Source: a virus. Taken from it: a stretch of DNA of 64,000 nt. The notes below the pieces were generated by a model, which saw nothing but the letters and a program-made list of their open reading frames with translations, was not told the origin of the DNA and ran no database searches. Location: the IMG/VR virus record IMGVR_UViG_3300045988_144682. One strand, 5' to 3'. Both the position numbers and the translations under genes were made by a program. This document shows positions 6,117-51,375 of the stretch, one piece after another. The first letter of the stretch is position 1. Each line of letters begins with the position of its first letter.

Positions 6117-6137
6117 ATGTTTACAAAGGAGATTAAA

Positions 6138-6548
6138 ATGAAAGTATTTTTAGGTGGTACATGTGCCGGTTGGAAATGGCGAGATGAGTTGCAGCCATTG
6201 CTTAAATGCGACTATTACAATCCAATTGTGAAGAATTGGAACGAAGAAGACAGACTGAGAGAAGTCCATGAGAGAGAAACTTCTGATTATGTTTTATATG
6301 GTATTACTAACGGAATTAAAGGCGTATATTCAATTGCAGAAGTTGTTGATGATTCAAACAAACGACCAGAGAAAACAATATTCCTTAATTTATATAAAAC
6401 ATATGAGAGAAGTGGAGAATCTAAGCAGATGGCGCATAGCTTAAAAGCCGTTGAAAATATGTTGAAAGCGAATGGAGTTATAGTATTCAGTGGCGAAAAA
6501 GCACTTCTGGAAGTTGCAGATTATTTGAATAAAGCAGTTTCAATATAA
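6138..6548 (+). CDS. Nucleoside 2-deoxyribosyltransferase-like protein
   Basis: AAGGAG RBS; N-terminal KVFLGGTCAGWKWRDE and the later SIAEVV Glu resemble this Rossmann-like family. Weak assignment. Confidence 0.45.
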   Translation: MKVFLGGTCAGWKWRDELQPLLKCDYYNPIVKNWNEEDRLREVHERETSDYVLYGITNGIKGVYSIAEVVDDSNKRPEKTIFLNLYKTYERSGESKQMAHSLKAVENMLKANGVIVFSGEKALLEVADYLNKAVSI

Positions 6549-6563
6549 GGAGAATGATTACAA

Positions 6564-7322
6564 ATGGGAGAATTTGTAAAACCAAAGAGAGTCATCGTTT
6601 CCGATAAAGAATATATTCAAAAACTTGTTAATGCTAATTTGGTAAAAGACTTACATGACAATGAGGAAATCTGCCCTTATTGTCATGGCACTGGTATGGT
6701 GATAAGAGATAACCAGTATGGATTGTCTGATGATCCAGACAGAAAAGTATGGTTTCCATATAAACATCAAGCGATTACTTTTTGTCAACATTGTTTTAAT
6801 GGTGTGATTCTCAGATGTAAATTGTGTGGAGAAGTAATTCAGCGTGGATATACAAAGCATGATTGTAAACAGCAAAGAGCTATAGACGAGAAATTACGAG
6901 AACAGAAAAAGCGAGAAGAATTTGAGAAAGCACCACTTTTACCAAAGAAAAAACAGAAAGATTATGAATATTTCTTTTCAGAAGAATACACACATGATAA
7001 TGGTTATTTTAATGACTGGGAAGAGTTTTTCGATGACTGGGAAAATGAACACGAAGAGTATGGAGATGTTCGCCCGAAATATGTGTGGGTAACTGAGCCA
7101 GTAGAAATGAGTATAAATGCAGAGAGTATTGCAGAACAGGCAACCGAAGATTTATACGAAGATGCATATGATGATATCTCTGATGGAGAAATAAAAAGAT
7201 TACAGGAAATTCTTGACCACTGGGCGAAAACATGTGGTGTAAGCACAACATACTATGAGAGTCATAAATACAAAGTAAGAATACCGTGGGAAGACTACAA
7301 TAAGAGAAAGGGAAAAGAATAA
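6564..7322 (+). CDS. Zinc-finger protein with acidic C-terminal half
   Basis: CPYCHGTG (DnaJ-type CxxCxGxG), CQHC, CKLCG; D/E-rich tail. Confidence 0.6.
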   Translation: MGEFVKPKRVIVSDKEYIQKLVNANLVKDLHDNEEICPYCHGTGMVIRDNQYGLSDDPDRKVWFPYKHQAITFCQHCFNGVILRCKLCGEVIQRGYTKHDCKQQRAIDEKLREQKKREEFEKAPLLPKKKQKDYEYFFSEEYTHDNGYFNDWEEFFDDWENEHEEYGDVRPKYVWVTEPVEMSINAESIAEQATEDLYEDAYDDISDGEIKRLQEILDHWAKTCGVSTTYYESHKYKVRIPWEDYNKRKGKE

Positions 7323-7324
7323 AA

Positions 7325-7528
7325 ATGGGATTTTGTCAGAGATGTGGTGGATATTGCGCCGATAACTATACATATTGTAAGCCGTGTTACATTGCACTTG
7401 GCACACCATATGGCACATCAATTTCAAAGGGGCATCAATGCAGAAAGTGTGGAAGAATAATTTATGGTAGATACAATTATTGCCTAGATTGCGCACGAAA
7501 GAAAGGATTTTTTAAGGAGGACTATTAA
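7325..7528 (+). CDS. Small zinc-ribbon protein
   Basis: CQRCGG...CKPC...CRKCG...CLDC in 67 aa. Confidence 0.55.
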   Translation: MGFCQRCGGYCADNYTYCKPCYIALGTPYGTSISKGHQCRKCGRIIYGRYNYCLDCARKKGFFKEDY

Positions 7529-7536
7529 GCTAGATT

Positions 7537-8103
7537 ATGAGTAATTTTTACATTGCAGATTTGCATTTAGGACATGAAAATGCAATGAGAAGGTTTGACC
7601 ACAGACCTTTTGAATCATTAGAAGAACAGGACAGAGCGATTATCGCAAATATCAATAACAGAGTATCGCCACAGGATAATCTTTATTTGTTGGGTGATGT
7701 GTCATGGTATAAGCCAGATAAGACTGCAGAACTGATTAAACAGATTAAATGTAAGAACCGATATCTGATTGTTGGAAACCATGATAGTTGGATTAAAGAT
7801 GGAAAATGTAAGAAATTGTTTCAGGGAATCTATGATTTAAAAAGAATCAATGATGAAGGAAGAATTGTTGTACTTTGCCACTATCCATTAGCAGTGTGGG
7901 ATCAGTCACATAGAGGCAGCTATCATTTATACGGTCATGTACATAATAATTTGAGTGAAGACGGAAAAACGCCGACACACAATATCTTGCATAATGAAGA
8001 GATGAAGAATGCATATAATGTAGGATGTATGTTGCCATATATGATGTATACACCAAGAACACTTGATTATATTCTGAAGAAAACCGGGAGGACTTCTAAG
8101 TGA
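7537..8103 (+). CDS. Calcineurin-like metallophosphoesterase
   Basis: Motifs ADLHLGH, LGDV, GNHD, HYP, GHVH. Confidence 0.85.
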   Translation: MSNFYIADLHLGHENAMRRFDHRPFESLEEQDRAIIANINNRVSPQDNLYLLGDVSWYKPDKTAELIKQIKCKNRYLIVGNHDSWIKDGKCKKLFQGIYDLKRINDEGRIVVLCHYPLAVWDQSHRGSYHLYGHVHNNLSEDGKTPTHNILHNEEMKNAYNVGCMLPYMMYTPRTLDYILKKTGRTSK

Positions 8104-21501: not shown

Positions 21502-21530
21502 TTGAAATATAATCACAAAGCAGATATAAT
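21502..21530 (+). promoter_or_regulatory. Sigma-A-type promoter (TTGAAA, 17-nt spacer, TATAAT)
   Basis: -35 at 21502-21507 and -10 at 21525-21530, directly after dut. Confidence 0.5.
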
Positions 21531-21623
21531 ATAATTGCCTTGTAATACTATATACAGAAGTAACTAGCATTTTTCTATAATTTGTAAAAACAATTATTCT
21601 GTAGCAAACCAACCAACAAAACG

Positions 21624-21660
21624 AAGCGTATTACTGGCAAAACCGGTGATACGCTTTTTT
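21624..21660 (+). terminator. Rho-independent terminator
   Basis: 11-bp stem AAGCGTATTAC/GTGATACGCTT (one G-U pair) followed by TTTTTT. Confidence 0.7.
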
Positions 21661-21672
21661 AATGGAGGCAAA

Positions 21673-21819
21673 ATGAAAAAATTTAAAGCTAAAATCTACC
21701 TAAAAAACAAAAAAGAATTAAATGAATACCTAAAAAATCTCGTAAAAATAAAGAAAAACCCTACTTTAGAAGATGTGAAATTTTCATTCAAGTGGGGAAC
21801 AATCCCTTGTGACCAATAA
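21673..21819 (+). CDS. Hypothetical 48-aa Lys-rich protein
   Basis: GGAGG 5 nt upstream of the ATG. Below the ORF-track length cutoff. Confidence 0.35.
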   Translation: MKKFKAKIYLKNKKELNEYLKNLVKIKKNPTLEDVKFSFKWGTIPCDQ

Positions 21820-21923
21820 CTACCATTTGGAAATATCAGGGAAAAAGAAGATGTGGAGGAAATATAATTATAAATAACGAAATACCTAAAACAATTCCGG
21901 TCGCAGACTATGCCGGATATATT

Positions 21924-22601
21924 ATGAAAAATTTTAAACCGGATGTCATAAAATTCAAAAAGCCTGAATCGGAATGGACAGAAGAAGAACATACAGAATA
22001 TACAAAATGGAGTCTTAAACTGTCTATGGCACATAGATTCAAGCAACAAATACAGGAGAATAAACCCTTAACAAATAGGGACAAAAGGATTATAGAGCGT
22101 TTTAGAAGTGGCGCAGATTTCTTTGGCGAAAAAATATGTGGCAAAGAAACATCAAGACTATTCGAACAACCATATACTTTTGATCTATTTAATGAGTGGC
22201 AGGAAAAGCACTTTAAAGAACACCCGGAAGACAAAGATAAAACAATCGAAGAGTTATTTGACATACGGCTTTCTGAACAGAAGCTATATCATTACAAAGA
22301 AGTAAACGGCAAATATTATGGTGCAGAAATCCCAAAAGAAATACATTACACAGAATATTTCCGATATCTATATTTCAATGTAAAGTATGAATTTAGTGAG
22401 AAAACATATTACAGATCTATCCCATATACAGACAAGGATAAGCAAGAAAGTATATGGGATAGGGAACGCTGCTTCGTTGCACAAGAGATTAGTGAATGGA
22501 GAGTGGACGAACTAGAAGATTGGCAGCGAGATCTTATCGAAAAAATAAGAGTCGGTGTTGAGCTAAAAGACGATGATATTGTTAAAGCAATGGGTTATTA
22601 A
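21924..22601 (+). CDS. Hypothetical protein
   Basis: 225-aa ORF. No recognisable RBS; the frame is open upstream to 21813. Confidence 0.55.
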   Translation: MKNFKPDVIKFKKPESEWTEEEHTEYTKWSLKLSMAHRFKQQIQENKPLTNRDKRIIERFRSGADFFGEKICGKETSRLFEQPYTFDLFNEWQEKHFKEHPEDKDKTIEELFDIRLSEQKLYHYKEVNGKYYGAEIPKEIHYTEYFRYLYFNVKYEFSEKTYYRSIPYTDKDKQESIWDRERCFVAQEISEWRVDELEDWQRDLIEKIRVGVELKDDDIVKAMGY

Positions 22602-22806
22602 AATCTAAATCATGAGCCTCTTTAATCGAGGAATTCAACGATTTATGATAGCAACAACAAGTTCCAAACTAAATAAAATTCTGATTTTATTTAGACTACT
22701 AATCGTCTGAAGCAAGCAAATATTGCTTAAAACAGAGGATAACGATTTTTACGAAAAACAGAAAAATCATGTTTGCGAAAGGATATATAGTATTTTTGTT
22801 TTACGT

Positions 22807-22937
22807 TTCTGGGAATATATCTTTTTGGGGAAAATGGCTTAAATCTCACATAATCGGCACTTTCGCCCCAATTTTCCCAAAAACAAAACACGTTTTTGGC
22901 AATTACTTCTGATTTTGGGAAATATTTTTGGGAAGGA
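22807..22937. repeat. Cluster of five TTTTGGGAA(A/T)AT-like motifs (4 direct, 1 inverted) upstream of tnsA-like gene
   Basis: Copies at 22807-22818, 22822-22835, 22871-22883 (inverted), 22911-22925 and 22925-22936. Confidence 0.6.
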
Positions 22938-22944
22938 GATTCAT

Positions 22945-23283
22945 ATGCGAAAAAAGAATTTCAAAGGGCGATGTGAAAAAATCACAGTCACAAAATCAAA
23001 ATCAATCTGTAAAACCTACGATGATCTACAAAGAAGCTATCTCGAAAAATTAGAAGCAAATTCCGACATTCAAGAAATCCGTATGAATATCGTTTTAGAC
23101 AGCTTGCCAGATTATATGTCAGACTTTGTTTGTGTTAAGAATGATGGTGGTTTAATGGTGCGAGAATGCGTATATCGGAAATTTCTCACTAAACCAATGA
23201 CAGTAAAGTTATTGGACGATTCAAGGAACTATTGGCGAAATCATGGTGTAGAAGATTGGGGGTTAGTTATAGATGCAGAATAA
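22945..23283 (+). CDS. TnsA-endonuclease-like small protein
   Basis: GGAAGGAG RBS. YMSDFVCV...VRECVYRK...SRNYWRNHGVEDWGLVIDAE resembles the TnsA N-terminal restriction-like fold. Catalytic Lys position unclear. Confidence 0.5.
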   Translation: MRKKNFKGRCEKITVTKSKSICKTYDDLQRSYLEKLEANSDIQEIRMNIVLDSLPDYMSDFVCVKNDGGLMVRECVYRKFLTKPMTVKLLDDSRNYWRNHGVEDWGLVIDAE

Positions 23284-25099
23284 TCTTATCAAAATTCAAG
23301 ATGGCACGATTTACCGTATATTACAAGAACGTGACTCAGAATGGCTTGTAATTGATTGTATTAAGCGTACTATGCCGAAATGGATAGAAAGTTTGGCTGA
23401 ATTTGAAAGCGTGCCTGAAAGCGTTTTATGGGTGACTACTGGCATTTATCCGACTGACACAAACACTTTATCAACCAAAGAGAAGAAGTATATGAATGAG
23501 CATTACAGCTTGTTTGCTAGTGTTCTGGGCGTTATTGATGATGAGAAAACGAGAAGCTATATTATCCGTGAGATTGCTGAATTATATAAAGTTACTAAGC
23601 AGACAATACGCAACAATTTATGTTTATATTTAGTTTATCAAGATATTACAGTCCTGCTGCCACACAAAAAAGAAAAACGAAACTTGACCAATGATGAAAA
23701 AAATATGAGGTGGGCATTAAACAAATATTACTACACCACAAAGAAACACAGTATTTCCGATGTTTATACAATGATGCTGAAAGAGAAATACTGTGATGAA
23801 ACTGGTCATCTCAAAGAAGATCATCCTTCTATTCATCAATTCCGCTATTACTTTCAGAAGACCAAGAAGCTGCAAAATTTATATATCAGTCGTGGCGGTT
23901 TAAAGGATTATCAGAAAAATCATAGACCGTTGCTTGGTGATGGTGTACAGGAATTTGCCCCAAATGTAGGTTTTGGCATGTTGGATTCTACAATTTGCGA
24001 TATCTACCTTGTGAATGATGCAAGGGAAGTTGTAGGAAGACCGATATTGACGGCTTGTGTAGATGGGTATAGTGGTATGTGTTTAGGTTATTCGCTTGGT
24101 TGGAAAGGTGGAATATATAGTGTTAAGGGACTAATGCTTAATATCGTTGCAGATAAAAAGGAACACTGTAAAAAATTTGGTATTGATATTGCTGATAATG
24201 TGTGGGATTGCCACCAAATGCCAGGGGTAATGATAACAGATAAAGGATCAGAATATATATCTGAAAACTTTGAACAAATCACAGAACTGGGAATAAGGTT
24301 GATTGATTTACCATCGTACCGACCAGAACTAAAAGGATCAGTCGAAAAATTCTTTGACCTTATACAGAATTCTTTCAAAACCGTGTTAAAAGGAAAAGGT
24401 GTAATAGAGCCGGATTTTCAAGAAAGGGGCGCACACGACTATCGAAAAGATGCTTGTATCACATTGGAAATATTCGAAAAAGTCTTGTTACATTGCATCA
24501 TTTATTATAATAGTGGACGCATACTGGAAAATTACCCATTCACTGAAGAGATGCTTTCCGCTAACATAAAACCATTTGCTTGTGAAGTTTGGAATTATGG
24601 CAGAAACCGTAATAATGCAAACTTGATAGATGTATCTGCAGAGCAAGTTATTATGACACTGCTGCCTAGATGCATCGGCAAATTTGCCCGAAACGGCTTA
24701 AAGGTGAACGGATTACGATATAAGCACCCTAACTATACAGAAATGTATCTGAAAGGTGGGGAGGTTACTGTTGCTTATAATCCGGATTCTGTTTCTGATG
24801 TTTGGCTTATTGATAATGGTGAATATGTAAAATTTGAACTGATTGAAAGTCGATATGAACACATGAATGTGGCGAATGTTGCCTCAATAAACGATGTGAA
24901 AAAAGAAGTTATCAAACAAGCGGAAAATGAAAACAAGCAAGCAAAAATAAATTTGCTAAAAACGATTGAAGTCATAACGGCTGGATCAGTGCCAAAATCT
25001 GTCCCTATAAAGAAAATACGTGAAAACCGTACAAAGGAAGAAACTCGTACACATATTGATTTTACGAAGGGAGTAAAGAAATATGCTACAAGAAAATAA
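23273..25099 (+). CDS. tnsB: DDE transposase, TnsB/MuA family
   Basis: rve-like core with MLDSTICDIYL (D), MITDKGSEY (D), RPELKGSVEKFF (E); long C-terminal domain. Confidence 0.8.
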   Translation: MQNNLIKIQDGTIYRILQERDSEWLVIDCIKRTMPKWIESLAEFESVPESVLWVTTGIYPTDTNTLSTKEKKYMNEHYSLFASVLGVIDDEKTRSYIIREIAELYKVTKQTIRNNLCLYLVYQDITVLLPHKKEKRNLTNDEKNMRWALNKYYYTTKKHSISDVYTMMLKEKYCDETGHLKEDHPSIHQFRYYFQKTKKLQNLYISRGGLKDYQKNHRPLLGDGVQEFAPNVGFGMLDSTICDIYLVNDAREVVGRPILTACVDGYSGMCLGYSLGWKGGIYSVKGLMLNIVADKKEHCKKFGIDIADNVWDCHQMPGVMITDKGSEYISENFEQITELGIRLIDLPSYRPELKGSVEKFFDLIQNSFKTVLKGKGVIEPDFQERGAHDYRKDACITLEIFEKVLLHCIIYYNSGRILENYPFTEEMLSANIKPFACEVWNYGRNRNNANLIDVSAEQVIMTLLPRCIGKFARNGLKVNGLRYKHPNYTEMYLKGGEVTVAYNPDSVSDVWLIDNGEYVKFELIESRYEHMNVANVASINDVKKEVIKQAENENKQAKINLLKTIEVITAGSVPKSVPIKKIRENRTKEETRTHIDFTKGVKKYATRK

Positions 25100-26333
25100 G
25101 ATTATCGAATTATTACCACAAGTGTTATCGGGAGATCGTTTAATTGAAGAACTTGGGTATCTTCCAGCGTATAATGAAACAATAATAGAACAAAGTCAGG
25201 CAAGCAGATTACTGGCATTGTCGGATATATATAGGGTGTATGTGCCATCTGAAATGAGTATTGAAATATATAATAAATTATATTTGGCACTATTACTATC
25301 TATAAAAAAGAAATTCACGGCAGCAGCAGTAAAACAAAGATATGAGAATGCAAAAATGATAAAACGAATGGATTCTGTGGGAATAATCGGTGGTTCGGAT
25401 TCATTCACTATTATTGGTTCATCTGGTATTGGAAAGAGTAGTGCTATAGAAAAATCCATTGGACTCTTAACGGAAAACGCCATTATACAGGATGATGAAC
25501 TGATAGGGAATGTTATTCCTTGCCTGGTTGTACAGTGTCCTTTTGACAGCTCAGTAAAAAGTTTGCTTCTGGAAATTCTCAGAAAAACAGATGAGGTGCT
25601 TGAAACGAATTATTATGAGTCAGCTAAAAAATCAAGATATACGACAACAGATGTTTTAATTGGTTCGGTCAGTACGATTGCATTAAATCACATAGGACTT
25701 TTGATCGTGGACGAAATACAAAATGTGGTTAATTCTAAGAATGGGAAAAGCCTCATTGGATCACTAACACAGTTAATCAATAATAGCGGTATATCTATCT
25801 GCATGGTGGGAACACCAGAAAGTGTGCCATTCTTTGAACAGGCTATGCAGTTGGCACGTAGAAGTGTAGGGTTAAGATATGAAGCAATGGAATATGGCGA
25901 TTACTTCAAATTTTTATGTCAAGTATTATGGCAGTATCAATATGTAAAAGAGTGCGTAGAACTTACAGAAGAAGTCACGTACTGGCTGTATGAGCATTGT
26001 GGGGGTGTTGTTTCTATTCTTATAACATTGCTGCATGATAGTCAGGAAATGGCAATTATGAGTGGCTATGACACCTTAGATTTGACGATATTGGAAGAAA
26101 CATATAAAAGCCGGTTATCTATGTTACACGGATATATTAAGCCAAATATGGGAGCAAAAGCCAGCCAGAAAAGAAAGAAAAGGATGCCAGAAATCAGCAG
26201 TGAAATTCTTTGCATCGAAAACGAGTCCCTAATTTCAGACCTAAGTACAATCGTAAAACAGGGGGCAATGGATATTGATGAAATGATAAATAGAATGAAT
26301 GTGGCATTTATGGTAGAGGTGATTGCATGTTAG
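25083..26333 (+). CDS. tnsC: AAA+ ATPase, TnsC/TniB family
   Basis: Walker A GSSGIGKSS and Walker B LLIVDEIQN; positioned between transposase and TniQ. Confidence 0.8.
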   Translation: MLQENKIIELLPQVLSGDRLIEELGYLPAYNETIIEQSQASRLLALSDIYRVYVPSEMSIEIYNKLYLALLLSIKKKFTAAAVKQRYENAKMIKRMDSVGIIGGSDSFTIIGSSGIGKSSAIEKSIGLLTENAIIQDDELIGNVIPCLVVQCPFDSSVKSLLLEILRKTDEVLETNYYESAKKSRYTTTDVLIGSVSTIALNHIGLLIVDEIQNVVNSKNGKSLIGSLTQLINNSGISICMVGTPESVPFFEQAMQLARRSVGLRYEAMEYGDYFKFLCQVLWQYQYVKECVELTEEVTYWLYEHCGGVVSILITLLHDSQEMAIMSGYDTLDLTILEETYKSRLSMLHGYIKPNMGAKASQKRKKRMPEISSEILCIENESLISDLSTIVKQGAMDIDEMINRMNVAFMVEVIAC

Positions 26334-27700
26334 GGATTGTACCAAAGTTATACGAAGATGAGCTTTTTTATTCATGGCTGTGCCGGTATTATGTGGCAAA
26401 AGGTTTTACGTCCAATTCTCATTTTATAGAGGAAGTAACCGGGAACAACAGATTGTATTTGAATAAAGAGTTTGTGCCACCATTCAAAGCAGAGTTTCGC
26501 CATGACATTGAAAAAATATTTGGTTTTGAGAATGTTATAAGAAATCATACTCTATACGGACAAGAAGCACGTTTCTATACTGAGGAAGAAATAAATAATG
26601 TGTGGGAGCTTTTTCAGACAGATTCCTTTGATATTAGAACATTATTTAGAATGCAGAAATCAAAAGAGGGGCATTCTCTTAGTTATTGCCCTTTGTGTGT
26701 TAAAGAAGAACGGGAATCTATCGGTGAATGCTACTGGCATAAATCCCACCAAATACAAGGTATAGATATCTGTTTGAAACACAGGTGTAAGCTAAAAGAA
26801 TCCGAAATAAGAGTTGGTTCAAAACATAATGATATGATATCTCCGGCAGAATGGTGGTGTAATGATTCGGAAATAGAAATGGTAGAAAACACGCATTGCT
26901 TGAAATATTATAATTATGTGTGGGAAATTGCCAATGCCCCTTGTAACGGGATGGATGCAAAAAAGATTATAGCTCTGTTATACAAGAAGCTGAAAGAAAA
27001 AGGCTACCGGACACTAGGACAACGGCTTTTAGGGATTATGTCAGAAGATATGGAGCAGTATTATGAGGAAATGGGCGTATCTTATGAAATGTGTTATTCA
27101 ACATTACAGACAATATTTGCAAAGTATAATTATCCGTTTATTGCCATTATCCAAACAGCGTACTTTTTAGGTGTGACAGCAGAAGAGTTACTGAATCCAG
27201 TTGTTAGTGATTTTGATATTGCAGATGAGGAATGTAGCCACTATGTCAGTGACCGTAATAATACAAATATCAATCGTGATCTGATGGATCGAAATTATCT
27301 GAAATCTGTTAAAAGAGAATGTGAGTTGATATATAGTGGTCATTATCATGCAAAAGGAAGACCGATGAAAGTGTCTGCACTTAAAGTATGCAAGAGAGTT
27401 GGAATTACACATACTTTGATTAAGTTTATGCCACTTTGCAAGGCTTGTATTGATGAATATGCAGAAACGGATGACGAATATCATGCGAGGATTATTGTGT
27501 GGGCTTATAGAAAATTGAAAGCGGAAAAAACGGACGGTGAAATAATTCGTGTGTCAGAAATTCATAAACTTACAAGTGAATGGAAGGAAAATATCATAAG
27601 AGCATTGCCATATATGGCGAAATTTGCGGATCAAGAAATGATAAATGAGATAGATGCATTAGCGAGAGAGAAGCATTGGCATAGAAATTTAGTGGACTAA
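26327..27700 (+). CDS. tniQ: TniQ/TnsD-family target selector
   Basis: N-terminal LYEDELFYSWLCRY; zinc module CPLC...HKSH...CLKHRC. Confidence 0.75.
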   Translation: MLGIVPKLYEDELFYSWLCRYYVAKGFTSNSHFIEEVTGNNRLYLNKEFVPPFKAEFRHDIEKIFGFENVIRNHTLYGQEARFYTEEEINNVWELFQTDSFDIRTLFRMQKSKEGHSLSYCPLCVKEERESIGECYWHKSHQIQGIDICLKHRCKLKESEIRVGSKHNDMISPAEWWCNDSEIEMVENTHCLKYYNYVWEIANAPCNGMDAKKIIALLYKKLKEKGYRTLGQRLLGIMSEDMEQYYEEMGVSYEMCYSTLQTIFAKYNYPFIAIIQTAYFLGVTAEELLNPVVSDFDIADEECSHYVSDRNNTNINRDLMDRNYLKSVKRECELIYSGHYHAKGRPMKVSALKVCKRVGITHTLIKFMPLCKACIDEYAETDDEYHARIIVWAYRKLKAEKTDGEIIRVSEIHKLTSEWKENIIRALPYMAKFADQEMINEIDALAREKHWHRNLVD

Positions 27701-27713
27701 AGCGTAAAAAAAT

Positions 27714-27737
27714 AGGCTGTAGAATAATCTACAGCCT
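27714..27737. terminator. Bidirectional terminator at the convergence of the two arms
   Basis: 9-bp stem AGGCTGTAG/CTACAGCCT. An A-run precedes it (T-run for the minus strand) and a weak T-rich stretch follows. Confidence 0.65.
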
Positions 27738-27765
27738 TAAAATTTATTCACAACTTTCTCTTTTA

Positions 27766-27858
27766 TTATTCCGACCAAATAGAAAAAAGTGATGGCAAAA
27801 TAATCACCAATGCAATAACCGCAACAGCTATCACATATTTCTTCTTGAACTTTTTCAT
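27766..27858 (-). CDS. 30-aa membrane peptide
   Basis: GGAG RBS; MKKFKKKYVIAVAVIALVIILPSLFSIWSE, a single TM segment. Confidence 0.4.
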   Translation of the reverse strand: MKKFKKKYVIAVAVIALVIILPSLFSIWSE

Positions 27859-27868
27859 TTACTTTCTC

Positions 27869-28324
27869 CTACTTTTCTTTGAATTGTATGATTGTACGTC
27901 CGAACAGTTTATAGTATGGTGCTGGTTCTTCATCAAAGACATAGTAGTTTATTGAATCAGCAACGATTATTGCCAAAAAAGAAAGAACTATCCATAGCAG
28001 CATAAACGGCACACAGATAATTCCTTTATAATTGAGTGGCAAATTTGAATAGTCCCACATTACAGGCAACAAATCAGTATTCAAGAAAATGTTCCCTATA
28101 ATCAATTCAAGTGCCGTAATCATTGACATGCCTATCATGCACTGTAATAGAATATCAATATCCCATGATATATGATCGTTGATTTTATCCAACACAACAA
28201 CTACTAAACCGGCACAAACACCCATGAGAGGATATGAATATCCTCTAAACAATACTTCTATAGTGATATACAGGCAGAAGCCAACAATAAATAAAATTAC
28301 ATTTTTATATACTTTTTTACTCAT
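27869..28324 (-). CDS. Multi-pass membrane protein (lysis-cassette associated)
   Basis: About 4 predicted hydrophobic helices; AAGGAG RBS. Confidence 0.65.
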   Translation of the reverse strand: MSKKVYKNVILFIVGFCLYITIEVLFRGYSYPLMGVCAGLVVVVLDKINDHISWDIDILLQCMIGMSMITALELIIGNIFLNTDLLPVMWDYSNLPLNYKGIICVPFMLLWIVLSFLAIIVADSINYYVFDEEPAPYYKLFGRTIIQFKEK

Positions 28325-28343
28325 TTATACTTCTCCTTATTAA

Positions 28344-28381
28344 GATAAAAAAATAGAGCGGATGTCAAATTTCCGCTCTAT
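28344..28381 (-). terminator. Rho-independent terminator
   Basis: 10-bp stem ATAGAGCGGA/TCCGCTCTAT followed by a T-run on the minus strand. Confidence 0.7.
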
Positions 28382-28396
28382 TAAACAGATATGCAA

Positions 28397-32155: not shown

Positions 32156-32428
32156 CTATAATAAAGAACTCATTTCGATAATGCAGCGTTTCATTTTTTC
32201 CATTTCTGTCATTTCCCGAATGATAAATCTTGTATGACCGTCTTCTTGCCAAATATTTGTACATATCATATCGGCATAGTCAACGCCACCTATATTAACT
32301 GTTGTTAAATTGTTATCAGACAAAAGTTCCATATTAACCACATCGTCTGTTATATAATTGTTTCCATTCATTGTGGCGTGAATCTCTGTTTTGTCTGCGA
32401 GGATAATATTGTAAATAGTATTTTCCAT
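32156..32428 (-). CDS. Hypothetical protein
   Basis: GGAGG RBS; the start lies inside the last 95 nt of the RT ORF. Confidence 0.5.
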   Translation of the reverse strand: MENTIYNIILADKTEIHATMNGNNYITDDVVNMELLSDNNLTTVNIGGVDYADMICTNIWQEDGHTRFIIREMTEMEKMKRCIIEMSSLL

Positions 32429-33602
32429 CTATAAAACCTCCAAATAAATCAAAATAAAGAAGATTCAAATTATCTCGTTGTATTTTACTCATTAAATGAG
32501 CATGACCGCCCATCCATGCACGAAACATATTCTCAACTTCTTCTTGTGTACGTTCTCCACGTATAACTTTTAGACTAAGTTTCTTTAATTTTCGCCTCAT
32601 ATCAACAATTCTTCTTGGATTTATTTTTCTAATAACCCTACCAGTATCGGTAAGAGAATAGGTGATTTGCAGAAATTTATAGTAATCTGATAATTTTACG
32701 ATTCTTGTCTTTTTGCGATTGAGAGTCATACCTAATTCTTTTGCTTTTTCTGCAATTTCTATTTCAAGCTGTACTAAAAATTCTCTGTCACGGTGGATAA
32801 CATAACTGTCATCCATATACCTTCCATAAAATTTCTGACTTTTTACAATTTTTACAAAATTATCTACAGGTGTTGGATAAAAGATACCTATAATTTGAGA
32901 ACATTGATCCCCAATATTTACAGATTTGCGCATATACTTTTCGCCAGTATGAGCAGATTTAGGAATTTTCAATCTATATTCAGTTGAATTAAATGGAACA
33001 TTCATACAATTTGAAAATTCTTCATCATTCATATACGAAACATCAATTTTAAAATTATCAAAAATCTGTTGTAACAACCAAAGAGAAAATTCATCATTCA
33101 CATGCTTGGCAATTTCTCGATAAGCTATATCATGTGGAATATTATCGTAAAACTTACTATAATCCATCAATAAAATATATCCGTCATTACCATACATTCG
33201 ATAATATTTATGTAAATGTTCTTCAAAGCGTTTTCGACTAAAATCAATGCCTTTGCCCTTAAGAGAAGCACCATTATCATAGATAAGATAATCTATGAGA
33301 GATGGAGATAAAACGTTATCACAAAGAGAATGACGAATTACTCTGTCAGACATTTGTAGTCCTGTAATTGGTCGAACTTTACCACGTTCATTGATAATAA
33401 ATTCAGAAGATGGTTTTGAATGATATTCTCTATTCTTTAACAAATCCTTGGTTGATACAATATTAGGCAAAAAGTCAATTCCATACTTTTGTACTTGTGG
33501 TTTCCAATCAGAATCTTTCTTGGCTGCGAGAAATGCAGAATATAATGAGTTCAAATCATATACAATATTATCTACATTGTCTTGAGCATTTTCTTTATTC
33601 AT
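32334..33602 (-). CDS. DGR reverse transcriptase
   Basis: LLMDYSKFYDNI, DGR-type IGDQCSQ motif and catalytic YMDD; lies immediately 3' of the template repeat. Confidence 0.9.
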   Translation of the reverse strand: MNKENAQDNVDNIVYDLNSLYSAFLAAKKDSDWKPQVQKYGIDFLPNIVSTKDLLKNREYHSKPSSEFIINERGKVRPITGLQMSDRVIRHSLCDNVLSPSLIDYLIYDNGASLKGKGIDFSRKRFEEHLHKYYRMYGNDGYILLMDYSKFYDNIPHDIAYREIAKHVNDEFSLWLLQQIFDNFKIDVSYMNDEEFSNCMNVPFNSTEYRLKIPKSAHTGEKYMRKSVNIGDQCSQIIGIFYPTPVDNFVKIVKSQKFYGRYMDDSYVIHRDREFLVQLEIEIAEKAKELGMTLNRKKTRIVKLSDYYKFLQITYSLTDTGRVIRKINPRRIVDMRRKLKKLSLKVIRGERTQEEVENMFRAWMGGHAHLMSKIQRDNLNLLYFDLFGGFIDGKYYLQYYPRRQNRDSRHNEWKQLYNRRCG

Positions 33603-33778
33603 TTCATAATCTTTTCTTTCATAATCATATTTATTTATATTTGACGTATATAGCAATCAGTCGTAACGAATTGCATCGTCTTTATCTTTTTGCGTATTAT
33701 ATAACACACGCAAGGACAACTTCTCCTTTCTTCGTTTCCTGTATCTGCATATAGCATAGTTAAACAGGCAGAAGAAAT

Positions 33779-37541: not shown

Positions 37542-40500
37542 CTAAGAATTTATTGCCCCCCCCAAGTACCTAAATGACAGGTTGCCATTTGAACGTGGGA
37601 TAAAAGCAAATTTTCCAAGTTGCAATCTATCTAAGATTTCAGCATCCGTTACATACAGCTTATTGTTACTGAAATAAGCAACTTCATCTGTTCCTTGGTA
37701 GAAACTTAACTTTTGCTCGCTCAACAGCATTGATAACTGCATAGACGGATCTTGGCTAGAAATCTTTCTTGTAATACGCAGTCCGGCATCTTCCATAGAG
37801 AAACATTCAGTCGTTTGCTCTATACTTTCAACTCTTCCGTTTATGGCATCAACACGAACAATGTATGTATTGACATCAGTTTGTACCTTATCAACTTGTT
37901 GTTGTGTCGTGACATTACTTTTCCGGATTTCTTCTATACGCCCATCTTCGCCGACCAAATCATCAAAGTCTTTTCTATTTGAAACAACATCATTGATTAC
38001 ATCAGAGATAATCTTCTTCAATTCGTCAGACATATCACCAGTAATCTTATCTGCGTAATCTGTTAAATCCTCTGGAGCAGGGTAGTAGTCTGTAGGACGG
38101 TTTCCTTTTTCCAACTGGATATAATCAATTGCATAATAGTCATTACTGTTCATGTTATCTGTAATTCTAAGCACATTTGATGTCACCCCAACATTGCCAG
38201 TAGAAATCAACTGACCTGAAGATGTAACAAACATGTCACGATTGTCAGATACAATATCAAACTCTGTATCTTCTAAAGTCAGGACGGTGTAAACCTTGTT
38301 CCATCCAGATGTAAGCTGTATCTGTTGCATATCAGTTGTCTGCATTACACCATTCGTATTTGCAAGGCAAACATTGAGTGTCATATTTTGACGAGAATAT
38401 ACATTCATTGATACCGTCAGTTTCGTTCCAAGTTCCGTAGCAACCAAATTGTCCGTATATACTTCGTAGTACACAGCCTTGGCAGCATTTGAGCCAGTTC
38501 CAGGCTGTACCTTGATTACACGCTTTGCATCAATTTCAGCTTCAGAAATAGAATATACTTTGTCAGTTCCATAATAATGACAACCTTCAAGCTGGTTCGA
38601 TTTCTTCAACAGGTTTCTTGCTCCGATAAGCATGTTTGAACTATCAACTAAGATAGGAACTGTCTGAATATCAAGTAGATTATCTTCAGTTGGAATTTGA
38701 TTAGCTTTGTGCATTTCTATAGTGTAAAAAGCTGGCATGTTAGCCTCACCATAAATAGTAAATATTTGTTCGGAAATATTATTTGATGAACTTATAATTT
38801 CTTCTGTACGATTATCACTATAAGTTTTTGATATAATAAAACGGCATGGGTAAACAACTCGATCACCATCCCCATCTCTATAATATCCTTTTGCTTTTAT
38901 CGTATCTGGTGTGATAATATTATTTCCGTCAATTTTTACAGCACTTGTATCAAGTTCTAAGAAATAAGTTCTTCCGGCATCACCAACATCACCTTGTTTT
39001 GCATTAGTATATGAGACAGTAGAGTTGCCATCTGAATATTGAACGGTTGTTCTTGTCCAAAGGTACATGCCATCTACTAAATCAGGGATTTCATCTGACC
39101 ATTTATTCGTTACGAATAAATTAGAAGAATTATCAATCAATGATTTTCCATCATTTGTAACAAGCTCAACTGATTCTGGAGGAACAGAAGAATTTTCTGT
39201 TGTGGTGATATATTCTACTTTAGTAGAAGTGATAGTAACATCATCACCCTTGATTTTTGACCAAGTGTAATCTGTGGGATTTTTACTATCTGTCTCAATA
39301 TTGTCAGTATATTGTCCGATATATTTTTTATTTGTTCCATTAACTGTATCAAAACCAGTTTTACCGTCAGAGGAATCGGCATAAGCTATATGAATATATC
39401 CGTTTTCACCAGGAACGCCATTTTCACCTACATATTTAGACCACTTATATTCGCTTGATTTTGTTGGTGCGATTGAAGTGGTAGTTGATGCTATACCAAC
39501 ATATTTTGTCGTTGATGATGGAGTTGCAGTCATTCCAGTACCATTTGCATCAGTAGCATAACGTACCCAAAGGTAAGAAGATGTACCATCGAAATAATCT
39601 ACACCCTTAATAGGTGTCTTTCCGTCCGTTCCTTTAATTAAAGTCCACGTATATTTTGTCGAATCATCACTATCGGCTTCAATATTATCGGTATATTGAC
39701 CAATGTATTTTTTACCCATTCCAACTGTTTTACTAAATCCAGTTTTGCCATCGGCAGAGTCAGCATAAGCAATATGAACATATCCATTCTTTCCAGGAGT
39801 TCCGTTTTCGCCTACATATTTCGACCATTTATAATTGCTTATTGTAGTTGGCGCAGTGTTTGTTGTGGTAGTCGCAGTACCTATATATTTTGTATCTGCA
39901 CTTGGAGTCGTAGTCATACCACTTCCATCAGAATTAGCGGAGTAACGAATCCATAAATATGAAGATGTACCGTCAAAATAGTCAACACCTTTTACTGGTG
40001 TTTTACCATCATCACCCTTGATTTTTGACCAAGTGTAATCCTTATAATTTCCACTGTCTGCTTGTGTATTGTCGGAATATACTCCAATATAAATTGCACC
40101 AGTAAATTCGGATTTAGAGAATCCTTCCTTACCATCAGCACTCATGGCGTAAGCAAAATGGACATAACCATTTTTACCTGGAATACCATCTTCACCATCT
40201 TTACCAGCGAACTTAGACCATACATAAGAATTTGCAGAGTCAGGATCTTTTATTACATCGTTGACACAAATACCTATATAATCAGAAGGAATTTCTGAAA
40301 TTTGGTCATCTGTAGGATTTGGATAAGCAGAATATTTTATATGGACATAATTACTTGAACCATCTCTACCATCACGTCCATTGATACCGTCTTTACCGTC
40401 AGTTCCATCAATACCTTGTCTCGATACACTGTATGTGACGGTCGAATTTCCGTCTGAATAATTTACAGTAGTTCTCGTCCAAAGATAAGAACCTTCAATT

Positions 40501-43500
40501 ACATATGGAATAGAAGATAACCATTTATTCGTTGCAATTTCATTTCCATTACTATCAACAATATTTTTGCCATCACTGGTAGCAAGAGAATTTGCTTGCG
40601 GTGGTGTAATTCCGTTATCGCTAGGAATATATACAACTTCCGTAGAAGTAATATATATACTATCTCCGTCTTTACCATCATCGCCCTTAAATTTTGACCA
40701 TGCATATTTTTTATAATCTGTACTGTCTGCTTTGATATTGTCAGTATATACGCCTATATAGGTTGCACCTTCATACTCACAAACGTTAAAGTTTACACTT
40801 CCATCGGCAGATTGAGCATATGCGAAATGCACAAAAGAATCTTCACCATCTTTTCCATCTAAACCAGGTGTTCCATCAGCACCGTCCTTACCTGAAAAAC
40901 GACTCCAAGTATAAGAACTTGCAGTAATAGGATCGTTTAAATTTGTATCAACACAAATACCAATGTACGCAGCCGGAACTTCTGTCAACATATCATCAGT
41001 AGGATTTGCTACAGAACTATATTTAATATGAATATAAGTGCTAATACCATCCTTACCATCTTTTCCTGGAATACCTTGTATTCCTTGTCCACCAGTTGCA
41101 CCAGCTTTAAGTTTTGCAATACGCAGCTTTTTACTTATGGCAATTTTACCCATATAAATGAGATCAAATACTACTTCTCCACGGTCGGTAGACAGTCCCT
41201 TTAAGGTGTAGCGATATTTAGTTTTATCCCATTCACCAGTAACACCACTTGTTGCAGTGATTGTCCAAGATAAGTCTGATGACTTTGTGATATCAGTGCT
41301 TCCAGAAAATACAGTTACATTTGTATAGCAATCCGTAAAATTACCACCATTACCATTGGAATCAGTCGTAATGCCTATATATTCATTGTCAAGTTGAACC
41401 ACAAGAGCAGATGCTTCTTGCTTGATTGTTTTATCAATATAAGAGCCAAGATCATCACTGGTTGTCATCTGAATATGTTTGCCGTTAATTTTGATATTTC
41501 CATCATCATCGACATATACATATTTAGTGTAAGATCCATCTTCGTTCTTTCGTTGCAAAGTAAACAAATCTTTATTTGTATCGTTTGCGTCCGAAGTAAC
41601 AGTAAAACCATTTTCGTCAATTTTTACTGAACCAGAAGTGTTATAGATTCCAACTTTATTTCCGAGAATAATGTTACCGACAATTTTATGAGCGATAATT
41701 CCATAGTCCTCTTTGTATGTACCAGATTCAGGATCAAAGTAAATATACTTACCAAGTCCAGTTTGAACAGTCTTCCAACCATCGTTTGTATAGTAAAAGC
41801 CATGATTGATTATTTTTGTTTGCTCAGAACTGTAATCATCACCAAACTCATTTTTTTCACGCATGAGCAAACCAGTCTCATCCACAACCATATTTTGATT
41901 GTCTGCAGCATTTACAATTTTCTTGTTAGTAAGGTTTAATCCATTTTCAACCATATCCATGATTTGTTTGTTGGCATTATTACCCTTATTCGCTTGATGC
42001 TGCACCATTGAATATGATGTTGACATAGACTGAGCTTGTGATAAGATACTCTGGATATCAGAAGCAGAATTTAATCCATAGGTTACATCAGAAAATTCTA
42101 CATTCAAAGAATCAAGATTATCATAATCAATCTTATATGAAGTCAAACGCAATTTATAAATTGTTTCATCAATCTCTATACGAACCCAATTACCAACATC
42201 AAAATTTACTAAGAGTGGAGAAAATGTTGCATCACCTTTCACGAAATATAATTGATCGTGTGACACAATATTTACACCAGCCAAAGTAACAATTGGAACA
42301 GGAGATGATTCAACATCTTGTTCTTTTACGAGTAAAAAGTTACTCAAATTACAACTAATGGTGTGTTGCAAAGTAGCAGATTTTACAATTTCACGTTCCG
42401 CATTTTTGATAAATTCTTTGGCTTGCATAATAAGTTCTTTGTCTGACAATCCATCAGAAATGAAATTATCATTCTTATATGTGTCATCACGTCTAAATGA
42501 ACAAAACTCAGTCCAAAGTGAATTCCCAAGATAAGTATGCAAATCCAAATTATTCGCAATAACCTGACGCTGCTTTTCGATATAATCAAGAACACCTTCT
42601 GGATTACTTTTAGAACCACGCAATTTCAGAATTTCAGATTCACGTTCCCTCAACTCATCTTCAATCCATATGCTTTTACTGTAATATGGATAATACATTG
42701 ATTCATACATATCATTTTCTGGATCAGCAATACCTTGTTGAATTAGAATGTCTAAACAACCTCTTACAATACTTGCAAGAATATTCAAATTATCGACACT
42801 ATAAAAGGACAAAGCCTTTTTGAATTCAGCCTCGTCCTTTTTAAATAAAGCAACTGTTCCAGTAGCATCAACATCATTTTTTTTCATTGCTTTTTCAAGC
42901 TGACATTTAATAAAATCCGATGTAGCATCTGATACATATATTGTTATAATTGATGTGGTTGCCTTATCATTCTCATCTGCATAACTTGATAGAGTGATAG
43001 TTCCTTTCCAAACATTCCCACTGTATGAATCATTTGTTGCTGTAATTCTATACAATGATGTGTCTACAAAAACTTTCGCATAATTTTGTAGAGCCAAAGT
43101 AACCGTAGATACAGACGCTTTATTGGCATTTTGAATACCAAGAGGTGAAAGCGTATTGGTAGTCAATTTCTTGATTTCTTGTGCAGCCGTTGTTTTCGTC
43201 CCACGTTCTGAGACTGGTGCAAGAGTAGTTTTTAATAAACTGTAAAAATTTAAAGCAGAATAATATAAATCTGTTAAAGAAGAATACCCTACAATTGGAT
43301 ATTTCACATTCATTAAAGAACTATCGTACAACTTATATTTATTGATTAGTGTATTGTAATCACTAATAACAGTAGATGGAATATCAATTTTTTTATCTGA
43401 TGAATATGAAGCATATTCTTTTTCGTAAGTAGATAATTTGTCACGTAATGTTTTTGACATATCGGCACGAACAGAATCACTAAAATACCAAATATATTGA

Positions 43501-44420
43501 CTTCCGCTTGGATTTATATTTCTAATTGTGGCTGTCATTAAATCATCACCAGCGACCAAACGAAAACAGTTTTTTACTTCATCCTTATTTGAAGAATACG
43601 AAATATTTCCGGCGAAATTTTCATGGCTTAAAAAGATACCACTATCTGAACCATATCCAAATTTAATATTAGCAGAGTTACATTTGGTACACATTTTGTT
43701 TGTGAATGTTCCACGTTCTCCACATTCCATACAAACATCGTTTAAATCATAAACAGAAATTGTCCTGTGGATTTTTCCATCATTATTGACAGATTCGCCA
43801 TAAACAAACAAACATTCTACTTCATTTGCGATATCATCAAATGCGCCTTTTATAGTAGAACCATCCCATGAAAATGTTCTTTGCAAATTAGCGATAGAGG
43901 AATCTACATGAACAATTGTATAATGGGATGCTTTATCTTTTAAAATTCTATCTAATGCAGATCCTTCTGGATTAGTTGGATCATATATAATAGTAGGGGT
44001 GTAATCGTCCCTTGCAATATCATCCTCTGTGTTGATTTCAATATCATTTAAACTAAGCTGTCCAAGTTCAGCTTCTTGTAAATGAACACCTTGACAGTGT
44101 TTTATAGTAGCATCATCCTCATCTGTTTCAACGGAAAGTTCATACCACGGATTAAAAGATGCTGTGTCAAGATGTGGGATATAGATCAATCTAAAGTCTC
44201 TAATGTCGTTCCATAATTCACATGTAACATTATCAACCTTTTTATAAACATCAAAAGTAATTTCAGCAGCTTGTGCAAGATCATTTTTATTGGTAAGTGA
44301 TTGAACATTATGAATAATTCCTTGTTTTGTCCCACCACGATAAGCCAATACGAGATCAGGTGCAATAGGCTGTCCATCTGGACTTATTTCTATAAGACCA
44401 CCATATAAAGAAGTATTCAT
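37542..44420 (-). CDS. Giant tail-tip/minor structural protein (2292 aa) with collagen-like triplets and repeated modules
   Basis: Follows the Dit-like gene; GIQGIPGKDGKDG triplets; about 6 YVHFAYA..ADG...YIG.Y.DN..ADS...Y.WSK.KG modules. Confidence 0.8.
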   Translation of the reverse strand: MNTSLYGGLIEISPDGQPIAPDLVLAYRGGTKQGIIHNVQSLTNKNDLAQAAEITFDVYKKVDNVTCELWNDIRDFRLIYIPHLDTASFNPWYELSVETDEDDATIKHCQGVHLQEAELGQLSLNDIEINTEDDIARDDYTPTIIYDPTNPEGSALDRILKDKASHYTIVHVDSSIANLQRTFSWDGSTIKGAFDDIANEVECLFVYGESVNNDGKIHRTISVYDLNDVCMECGERGTFTNKMCTKCNSANIKFGYGSDSGIFLSHENFAGNISYSSNKDEVKNCFRLVAGDDLMTATIRNINPSGSQYIWYFSDSVRADMSKTLRDKLSTYEKEYASYSSDKKIDIPSTVISDYNTLINKYKLYDSSLMNVKYPIVGYSSLTDLYYSALNFYSLLKTTLAPVSERGTKTTAAQEIKKLTTNTLSPLGIQNANKASVSTVTLALQNYAKVFVDTSLYRITATNDSYSGNVWKGTITLSSYADENDKATTSIITIYVSDATSDFIKCQLEKAMKKNDVDATGTVALFKKDEAEFKKALSFYSVDNLNILASIVRGCLDILIQQGIADPENDMYESMYYPYYSKSIWIEDELRERESEILKLRGSKSNPEGVLDYIEKQRQVIANNLDLHTYLGNSLWTEFCSFRRDDTYKNDNFISDGLSDKELIMQAKEFIKNAEREIVKSATLQHTISCNLSNFLLVKEQDVESSPVPIVTLAGVNIVSHDQLYFVKGDATFSPLLVNFDVGNWVRIEIDETIYKLRLTSYKIDYDNLDSLNVEFSDVTYGLNSASDIQSILSQAQSMSTSYSMVQHQANKGNNANKQIMDMVENGLNLTNKKIVNAADNQNMVVDETGLLMREKNEFGDDYSSEQTKIINHGFYYTNDGWKTVQTGLGKYIYFDPESGTYKEDYGIIAHKIVGNIILGNKVGIYNTSGSVKIDENGFTVTSDANDTNKDLFTLQRKNEDGSYTKYVYVDDDGNIKINGKHIQMTTSDDLGSYIDKTIKQEASALVVQLDNEYIGITTDSNGNGGNFTDCYTNVTVFSGSTDITKSSDLSWTITATSGVTGEWDKTKYRYTLKGLSTDRGEVVFDLIYMGKIAISKKLRIAKLKAGATGGQGIQGIPGKDGKDGISTYIHIKYSSVANPTDDMLTEVPAAYIGICVDTNLNDPITASSYTWSRFSGKDGADGTPGLDGKDGEDSFVHFAYAQSADGSVNFNVCEYEGATYIGVYTDNIKADSTDYKKYAWSKFKGDDGKDGDSIYITSTEVVYIPSDNGITPPQANSLATSDGKNIVDSNGNEIATNKWLSSIPYVIEGSYLWTRTTVNYSDGNSTVTYSVSRQGIDGTDGKDGINGRDGRDGSSNYVHIKYSAYPNPTDDQISEIPSDYIGICVNDVIKDPDSANSYVWSKFAGKDGEDGIPGKNGYVHFAYAMSADGKEGFSKSEFTGAIYIGVYSDNTQADSGNYKDYTWSKIKGDDGKTPVKGVDYFDGTSSYLWIRYSANSDGSGMTTTPSADTKYIGTATTTTNTAPTTISNYKWSKYVGENGTPGKNGYVHIAYADSADGKTGFSKTVGMGKKYIGQYTDNIEADSDDSTKYTWTLIKGTDGKTPIKGVDYFDGTSSYLWVRYATDANGTGMTATPSSTTKYVGIASTTTSIAPTKSSEYKWSKYVGENGVPGENGYIHIAYADSSDGKTGFDTVNGTNKKYIGQYTDNIETDSKNPTDYTWSKIKGDDVTITSTKVEYITTTENSSVPPESVELVTNDGKSLIDNSSNLFVTNKWSDEIPDLVDGMYLWTRTTVQYSDGNSTVSYTNAKQGDVGDAGRTYFLELDTSAVKIDGNNIITPDTIKAKGYYRDGDGDRVVYPCRFIISKTYSDNRTEEIISSSNNISEQIFTIYGEANMPAFYTIEMHKANQIPTEDNLLDIQTVPILVDSSNMLIGARNLLKKSNQLEGCHYYGTDKVYSISEAEIDAKRVIKVQPGTGSNAAKAVYYEVYTDNLVATELGTKLTVSMNVYSRQNMTLNVCLANTNGVMQTTDMQQIQLTSGWNKVYTVLTLEDTEFDIVSDNRDMFVTSSGQLISTGNVGVTSNVLRITDNMNSNDYYAIDYIQLEKGNRPTDYYPAPEDLTDYADKITGDMSDELKKIISDVINDVVSNRKDFDDLVGEDGRIEEIRKSNVTTQQQVDKVQTDVNTYIVRVDAINGRVESIEQTTECFSMEDAGLRITRKISSQDPSMQLSMLLSEQKLSFYQGTDEVAYFSNNKLYVTDAEILDRLQLGKFAFIPRSNGNLSFRYLGGAINS

Positions 44421-51341: not shown

Positions 51342-51347
51342 CAATAA

Positions 51348-51375
51348 TAATCTTGCAAATAATAATAGTAATAAA
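51348..51375. repeat. 28-bp inverted repeat, left arm
   Basis: TAATCTTGCAAATAATAATAGTAATAAA; 26/28 complementary to 51961-51988. Confidence 0.85.

Follow-up and report, generated by a model that had tools for sequence, protein, structure and literature searches.

A Tn7-like module proposed to integrate an SPbeta-like phage of gut Lachnospiraceae at rsfS

The IMG/VR virus record IMGVR_UViG_3300045988_144682 is the source of a 64,000-nucleotide (nt) stretch of DNA, which was analysed as a whole and which we call the window. The window is phage DNA in which a plus-strand early and nucleotide-metabolism arm (NrdD, NrdG and dUTPase, among others) and a minus-strand late arm run toward each other and meet at about 27.7 kb; the late arm carries endolysin, tape measure, a reverse transcriptase (RT) of the diversity-generating retroelement type, and giant proteins. 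Four overlapping, co-oriented plus-strand open reading frames (ORFs) that form a Tn7-like transposition module close the early arm, and directly upstream of them lies a mini-transposon that we call A. We propose that a temperate, SPbeta-like phage of about 175 kb infecting gut Lachnospiraceae uses the four genes as its lysogenic integration module, and that integration would proceed via a replicative cointegrate at the host gene rsfS; we put the probability of this reading at roughly 0.6.

The Tn7-like module and element A

The features of the region, in window coordinates, are these:

21502-21530, plus strand: promoter-like site, TTGAAA-17-TATAAT, 11/12 by consensus match only, 21 nt outside the R tip
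21551-22785, plus strand: mini-transposon A, 1,235 bp
21551-21602, plus strand: R tip of A, the rsfS-proximal end, with a conserved 34-nt block (21569-21602) that is a candidate TnsB site
21673-21819, plus strand: gene for a protein of 48 amino acids (aa), cargo of A, called as a gene in several assemblies
21924-22601, plus strand: p225, cargo of A, an ORFan
22734-22785, minus strand: L tip of A, ending in ...GCGAAAGGATA-3' (reverse complement 5'-TATCC...), with its 34-nt block (22734-22767) in register with that of the R tip
22786-22944, plus strand: region from the L tip to the small ORF, consisting of the donor flank TATAGT... and TTTTTGGGRAA motifs in both orientations (22822-22935)
22945-23283, plus strand: small protein, 112 aa from ATG (122 aa from a TTG at 22915), weakly TnsA-N-like
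23273-25099, plus strand: TnsB, DDE transposase, from profile and structure-relative searches
25083-26333, plus strand: TnsC/TniB, AAA+ ATPase, from profile searches
26327-27700, plus strand: target selector of the TniQ/TnsD type, whose predicted target is the rsfS 3' end
27715-27737, plus strand: hairpin terminator after tniQ

An earlier inspection of this DNA (hereafter the initial annotation) had read the four genes as tnsA-like, tnsB, tnsC and tniQ, and profile searches support the last three of these assignments and, weakly, the first. TnsB matches PF09299 (Mu-transpos_C, 1.6e-6) and phrog_310 (transposase, 7e-38), has a precomputed assignment to PF27135 (HTH_TnsB), and finds its closest relative in the PDB in the TnsB of Tn7 (7pik, E 1.2e-38), with which the D, D and E residues align. 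TnsC matches PF05621 (TniB, 2.7e-13) as well as AAA_22, and TniQ matches PF06527 (4e-18), its closest PDB relative being the TnsD of Tn7 (8glu, E 2e-8), Cys/His module included. Among GenBank phages nothing resembles the module by DNA, and at the protein level TnsB finds only distant Acinetobacter tniA matches and TniQ none.

The small protein itself gave no family match in profile searches. Its family is tightly conserved over 1,639 hits, and 17 of 34 sampled homologues match PF08722 (TnsA-like_N) weakly, at a best E of 0.002. An AlphaFold2 (AF2) model with a mean confidence score (pLDDT) of 60 has the alpha-beta-beta-beta-alpha-beta order of the PD-(D/E)xK core; a Foldseek search with this pLDDT-60 model placed TnsA (1f1z) at rank 26 with an E of 0.057, and hhalign of the family against what we take to be the sequence of Tn7 TnsA gave an E of 0.045 over 26 columns. 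Residues E44, D60 and E74 are invariant or nearly so in the family. In a comparison by eye with this same TnsA sequence, D60 corresponds to D114, and Val stands at the position of K132. The protein is without the TnsA C-terminal domain, and a minimal TnsA-N-like PD-(D/E)xK fold is a plausible but weak assignment.

The ends that belong to this machinery lie at 21551 and 22785, both upstream of the four genes, where the initial annotation had been able to identify no second end. The A tips form an imperfect, in-register inverted repeat with 34 matches in 60 positions (shuffle mean 17.7, standard deviation 3.3; 0 of 20,000 shuffles), and the conserved block occupies tip positions 19-52. A weight matrix of this 34-nt block finds two strong sites in the whole 64 kb, and these are the A tips. 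Positions T1, T3, A12, T21, T23, C25, A36-37, A46 and C49 of the tip are invariant, a pattern common to chromosomal relatives whose TnsB is 57-60% identical. The R tip reads 5'-TATACAG in the window versus TGTACAG in most strains; the TAT form also stands in both A copies of a prophage remnant described below (L100), which implies that the TAT variant has been integrated.

Around the module itself, an inverted-repeat search over 22400-28000 returned only chance-level pairs, and no cargo lies between tniQ and the late arm. Since the four genes lie outside the ends, the block is neither a minimal, cargo-less element embedded in the phage, as had also been suggested, nor a module without ends. 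A left end on the tniQ side, suggested by 'TGTGAATAA' at 27752, was rejected as the edge of an 855-bp strain indel. This late-arm polymorphism begins at 27752/27753, and the extra sequence consists of two small minus-strand ORFs in near-identical strains.

The gene at 21924-22601 had been taken for an attachment gene comparable to glmS, but it is p225, cargo inside A, and the attachment gene is the host's rsfS. No Pfam match was found for the 48-aa gene, and no Pfam, PHROG or NCBIfam match for p225. An exhaustive search of 1.84 billion proteins returned 20 representatives of p225 and its AF2 model was unusable (pLDDT 45), so that no candidate role emerged from families, exhaustive search or AF2. 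A differs in length among strains (1,134, 1,234 and 1,613 bp). Within 22607-22666, strain indels add 77 bp, or about 310 bp more with a 115-aa minus-strand ORF; elsewhere a 188-bp deletion in A merges the 48-aa gene and p225 into an ORF of 255-256 aa, and in some solo A copies p225 is swapped for another small gene.

The non-coding, repeat-rich leader of about 340 bp reported in the initial annotation is real (22602-22944), and 5 of the 6 window-wide matches to TTTTTGGGRAA cluster at 22822-22935. Arrays of the motif lie between L tip and small ORF in all relatives. We presume from its position that 22786-22944 is the promoter/operator of the module, in which the arrays might serve as operator or enhancer. 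These repeats were also considered as TnsB sites or ends, and were rejected because they are outside element A. Transcription from the promoter-like site upstream of A would enter A in just two settings, the phage form and the right-hand copy of the prophage, so that the two A copies of a lysogen may differ in expression.

Prophages, solo copies and empty sites at rsfS

The dUTPase protein of the phage and its 112-aa protein were each found in thousands of public assemblies, and bacterial contigs of 200-740 kb are among these; the phage is very abundant in public data, with its proteins in 5,874-8,096 index blocks. The module side of every large contig has the host gene order rplU-prp-rpmA-obg-yhbY-nadD-yqeK-rsfS, followed by 5'-TGTACAGAAGTAAC..., which is the window from 21551 onward, and then by the 48-aa gene, p225, the leader, the small ORF, tnsB, tnsC, tniQ and the late arm. 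The other side of the prophage runs through the early arm, the dUTPase gene, the 48-aa gene and p225, ends at 22785 (...GCGAAAGGATA) and passes into host DNA of at least three gene contexts. The phage form thus has one copy of A and the prophage two, one at each end in direct repeat, and A also occurs alone at rsfS.

Host-phage junctions, which the initial annotation had proposed seeking in reads from lysogens, are found in assembled bacterial contigs at rsfS. Homology to the window begins at 21551/3 beside rsfS in 10 lysogen loci and ends at 22785-9 beside host DNA in 10 loci. In three contigs both junctions are present, in the order host, target-site duplication (TSD), A, module, late arm, early arm, A, TSD, host; their TSD pentamers (AATTC, TATTC and GTTAG) are identical on both sides, and their inserts, computed from coordinates, measure 176,079, 176,725 and 176,594 bp. 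Matching 5-bp TSDs were found overall in the three lysogens, in the remnant L100 and in 9 of 10 solo loci. The 5-bp duplications that had been proposed as a check thus exist, at prophages and at solo A, while the leader motifs that had been proposed alongside them lie outside the element. As the TSDs vary in sequence, site-specific recombination is excluded as the entry step.

The distance from the tip to a conserved block of rsfS, TGGAGnGAnGG, is 36-37 nt in 21 of 21 loci with 16 distinct flanks. This spacing is kept whether the insertion falls 5-10 nt past the stop codon or within the last codons, although the insertion point shifts by about a base between events, and the R tip (TGT) faces rsfS in all 21 loci. 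We predict that TniQ targets the conserved block at the rsfS 3' end, TTCTATGATCT..TGGAGAGAYGG.

The two A copies of any one lysogen are identical (0 differences) and carry the same strain-specific indel variant. Two remnants, L100 (3420-11900) and L115 (8524-20339), are heavily deleted and non-viable and are anchored between rsfS and the host flank; the tns module is missing from L100, which has kept both A copies. Deleted remnants at rsfS argue that integration is real.

A metagenome scan with the reconstructed empty site returned 94 stretches, and in the 80 readable empty-site loci the pentamer is single, as in CTGTAG TATTTATTC TATGATTAAGG. All 10 places returned for p225 are solo A, in at least five host contexts, and in many genomes solo A lies between rsfS and the downstream host gene. 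A perfect 5-bp TSD flanks 9 of the 10, with six distinct pentamers (AGAAT, TTAGG, ATTTT, TATTC, ATTCA and TTATT), and the flanks of the tenth (L119) are off by 1 nt. Solo A or a deletion derivative of it is also carried by GTDB representatives, among them Eubacterium ramulus strain 21 and metagenome-assembled genomes (MAGs) of Mediterraneibacter, Fusicatenibacter and other Lachnospiraceae. In a Mediterraneibacter MAG (L224, 857-3202; CAKRDI010000001.1), a 0.73-kb mini-A and a 1.6-kb A stand in tandem behind rsfS, with AAAGA at both outer flanks and AAGA between the copies (AAAGA counting the last A of the L tip). A second insertion at the same target pentamer would give this pattern, which points to insertion more than once at a single target and to target immunity that is incomplete.

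Related phages without the 5-kb block had been proposed as a comparison, and they carry a serine recombinase in its place. In the sister phages L019-L031, whose NrdD is 82% identical, a 613-aa protein with Resolvase and Recombinase domains, an integrase of the SPbeta type, lies between the same dUTPase gene and the convergent late gene, and no homologue of it was found in the window. Judged by gene order, the Tn7-like module occupies the slot of the serine integrase of these sisters.

A tyrosine recombinase gene (phrog_1; 55011-56045, minus strand) lies in the late arm beside the tape measure gene, and its product is 55-57% identical in more distant phages. It was rejected as the real integrase: it is also conserved, at 78%, in the sisters with serine integrase and, being present in both kinds of phage, is not the integrase that was swapped. 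It could be a dimer or cointegrate resolvase. Ends of IMG/VR contigs at 21605 were likewise rejected as genome termini or an insertion boundary, as the assembly breaks 55 nt into A. The contigs 3300045988_138132, _139784 and _147397 (L090, L093 and L095) stop at this point, which fits k=55, and the break leaves these 'complete' viral genomes without the integration module.

A proposed route into the chromosome and its rivals

The arrangement host-TSD-A-replicon-A-TSD-host is the textbook product of replicative transposition from a circular donor, which leads us to propose a cointegrate mechanism. TniQ/TnsD would recognize the conserved sequence at the 3' end of host rsfS, and TnsC would bridge it to TnsB sitting on both A tips of the phage circle. 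Strand transfer, staggered by 5 bp, would proceed without double-strand excision, and replication would then fuse the whole circle into the chromosome. Lysogeny would consist of the resulting cointegrate, rsfS-TSD-A-module-late arm...early arm-A-TSD, and recombination of A with A would free the phage circle, the form seen in the window, and leave a solo A at rsfS. We infer the catalysis by TnsB, TnsC and TniQ, the replicative pathway and the excision by A x A recombination from these structures. The initial annotation had come closest with the idea of a phage genome that is itself moved by Tn7-like machinery and assembled in joined form, which holds; its placing of both ends in the leader does not, as only one end is there (22785) and the other is at 21551.

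An unlikely alternative is that the phage integrates in two steps, the module planting A at rsfS by simple insertion and the phage then entering and leaving by homologous or resolvase-mediated (Campbell-type) recombination with the resident A as a 1.2-kb 'landing pad'. Solo A is common, at the same positions and with the same TSD as lysogens (TATTC in L123 and L099/L110, for example), and non-autonomous deletion derivatives and the tandem insertion show A moving alone; moreover, target immunity of the Tn7 type, which is established Tn7 biology, would stop re-transposition beside a resident A. However, the shared indel variant and the 0 differences between the A copies of each lysogen are what duplication at integration should produce, even if gene conversion or assembly collapse could mimic them, and the two-step route gives no reason for the tips staying outside the module in all lineages. 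We consider it still less probable that the phage is cut and pasted from a concatemer or dimer, with the TnsA-like protein and TnsB excising the segment that runs from the R tip of one A copy to the L tip of the A one genome length further on, and pasting A-phage-A as a simple insertion. The product would be the same as that observed, concatemers arise in phage replication, insertion sequence (IS) elements are known to form conservative 'cointegrates' when the donor is a dimer, and the small protein retains E44, D60 and E74 of the PD-(D/E)xK core. Yet it has Val at the position of the catalytic Lys and no TnsA C-terminal domain, and tips 175 kb apart would have to compete for synapsis with tips 1.2 kb apart.

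That the hosts hold solo A only, and that the 'lysogen' contigs are mis-joins through the 1.2-kb repeat, seems to us very improbable. The de Bruijn graphs of 'lysogen' and of 'solo + circle' are identical, and the IMG/VR contigs that break 55 nt into A show that assemblers struggle there; the same structure nevertheless recurs in many independent assemblies made with different assemblers, the insert size is consistently 176 kb, and the non-viable remnants L100 and L115 have unique deletion junctions between rsfS and the host flank. Hardly any weight falls on a passenger or decayed Tn7-like transposon unrelated to lysogeny, the reading to which the minimal-element and domesticated-module scenarios of the initial annotation correspond. 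Tn7-like elements do target mobile DNA, and the absence of cargo between tniQ and the late arm would suit such an element, but there are no ends around the module, the sole end-like sites in 64 kb being the A tips; the module sits in the integrase slot and keeps its place in phage lineages with no more than 45-55% identity in TnsB; and the prophage boundaries fall exactly at the A tips, with 5-bp TSDs.

Several observations weigh against integration by a replicative cointegrate. The L tip ends in TA-3' where relatives have CA-3', the usual end for transposases of the Mu and Tn7 type, and the R tip of the window is TAT, not TGT. One conserved 34-nt block was found per end, whereas Tn7 ends carry 3-4 TnsB sites. 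It is possible that the small protein acts as a nuclease, which would favour cut-and-paste, and cut-and-paste cannot integrate the phage from a monomeric circle. The identity of the A copies could be an effect of assembly through repeat collapse, and A is a 1.2-kb exact repeat across which the assembly of short reads could wrongly turn 'solo A + free circle' into 'lysogen'. The link from the proteins to the events is drawn from assembled sequence only, and the replicative pathway gives the same sequence as the two-step and concatemer routes; in all three the module is the integration system of the phage.

Related modules, known systems and significance

A scan with a TnsB alignment returned 48 viral loci, including many contigs of 100-220 kb in which the four genes recur in the same place. 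These viral relatives are 45-55% identical in TnsB versus only 23-33% in TniQ. In the four phage lineages examined, two tips 310-460 bp apart make up the best inverted repeat upstream of the small ORF, in a mini-element lying about 200-270 nt before that ORF. In Lachnospiraceae chromosomes, relatives with plasmid-like cargo (Rep3, relaxase, ArdC) begin 6 nt past the guaA stop codon, and both of their tips, canonical TGT...ACA, lie within 200-450 bp upstream of the module; no second copy of the mini-element was found within 10 kb downstream of guaA-type modules. In Roseburia hominis (CP159990; L007, 7740-9212), an IS (DDE_Tnp_1) lies between the two tips of a guaA-type mini-element (L007, 7420-9495), whose R tip is directly preceded by TGAAA. 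As the tips lie outside the module in both phage and guaA relatives, externalized tips are a trait of the family.

The late arm of the window is variable in other respects. An RVT_1 gene lies among tail-fibre-like genes (32334-33656, minus strand, in the window; 16677-17945 in L002), and this locus is probably a diversity-generating retroelement; a second RT lies beside a DUF4376 protein in some strains. A hypervariable spot at 27752/27753 and 28319-28389 holds a block of about 5.4 kb with a second RT in near-identical strains, and on the L036 side a 2,562-aa DUF6273 protein. Giant ORFs at 37542-44420 and 45606-51488 (minus strand) encode 2,292 and 1,960 aa, and in contig 3300045988_150085 the stretch 31.6-45.4 kb is exchanged for different sequence.

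The system resembles Tn7 in its DDE TnsB, AAA+ TnsC and zinc-finger TnsD/TniQ, with the nearest solved relatives of TnsB and TniQ being those of Tn7 itself, in its fixed distance and orientation behind rsfS, as TnsD places Tn7 behind glmS, and in its 5-bp TSD. It differs in having rsfS as the target, its genes outside the ends and 1.2 kb between them, in an L tip that ends in TA, in a TnsA counterpart reduced to a 112-aa stub without the Lys and the C-terminal domain, and in the integration of a whole 175-kb phage. Loss of TnsA catalysis in Tn7 yields cointegrates. The predicted chemistry, with 3' nicks only leading to a cointegrate with two element copies and one TSD, is that of TnsA-deficient Tn7, of CRISPR-associated transposons belonging to type V-K and of the Tn5053 family; there the cointegrate is an intermediate or by-product, whereas in the phage it would be the end state, lysogeny, and the phage targets a gene end rather than res sites or the site of a guide RNA. 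No resolvase lies in or next to the phage module, unlike the TniR with res of Tn5053/Tn402, and the target, rsfS, is different.

As in Mu, B3 and D3112, entry into the chromosome would rely on a phage-encoded DDE transposase with an AAA+ partner of the same superfamily. In Mu, however, the ends are the genome termini, targets are near-random, replication proceeds by transposition and host flanks are packaged, whereas the phage tips bound 1.2 kb, there is a single target site, with TniQ as its predicted selector, and both tips are crossed by contigs that continue into phage DNA. SPbeta, which has the large serine integrase SprA, shares with it the YomU, YomX and YonB Pfam families, NrdD/NrdG, nucleotide-metabolism genes and convergent arms, its integrase being swapped here for the Tn7-like module and mini-transposon. 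Tn3 and IS cointegrates likewise arise when a circular replicon is fused into another by a small element that it carries, with two direct copies flanking; the phage fusion differs in being site-specific, encoded beside rather than inside the element, and used by a virus.

In two broad surveys of Tn7-like elements, clades lacking tnsA are predicted to use a replicative cointegrate pathway (Benler 2021, PMC8649781) and a reconstitution of Tn6022 gave 39% cointegrates (PMC10293859), and a term search of both surveys found no description of the present system. We found no description of a Tn7-like module that integrates a phage at rsfS in the literature, the coverage of which was incomplete, so that earlier work is possible.

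A broader proposal, which in our estimation could as easily prove wrong as right, is that a whole group of temperate gut phages of 100-220 kb, as well as plasmid-like guaA elements, use a Tn7-derived 'replicon-fusion' machine instead of an integrase. The tips would be externalized as a mini-transposon, lysogeny would be an unresolved cointegrate at a site picked by a fast-diversifying TniQ, and induction would be its resolution, leaving a solo scar. Standard Tn7 boundary finders and prophage callers would mis-delimit such elements. The natural layout, with transposase genes outside very short ends and the cointegrate, usually seen as a defect of TnsA-less elements, as the useful outcome, bears on the engineering of large-payload, site-specific insertion. 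If our reading is true, this is a third route to the prophage state beside site-specific recombinases and random transposition of the Mu type, one that is protein-targeted and carries a cargo of about 175 kb. It predicts heritable solo-A 'scars' recording past lysogeny in common gut Lachnospiraceae, and the two-gene solo A scar of the window phage could serve as a landing pad or in target immunity.

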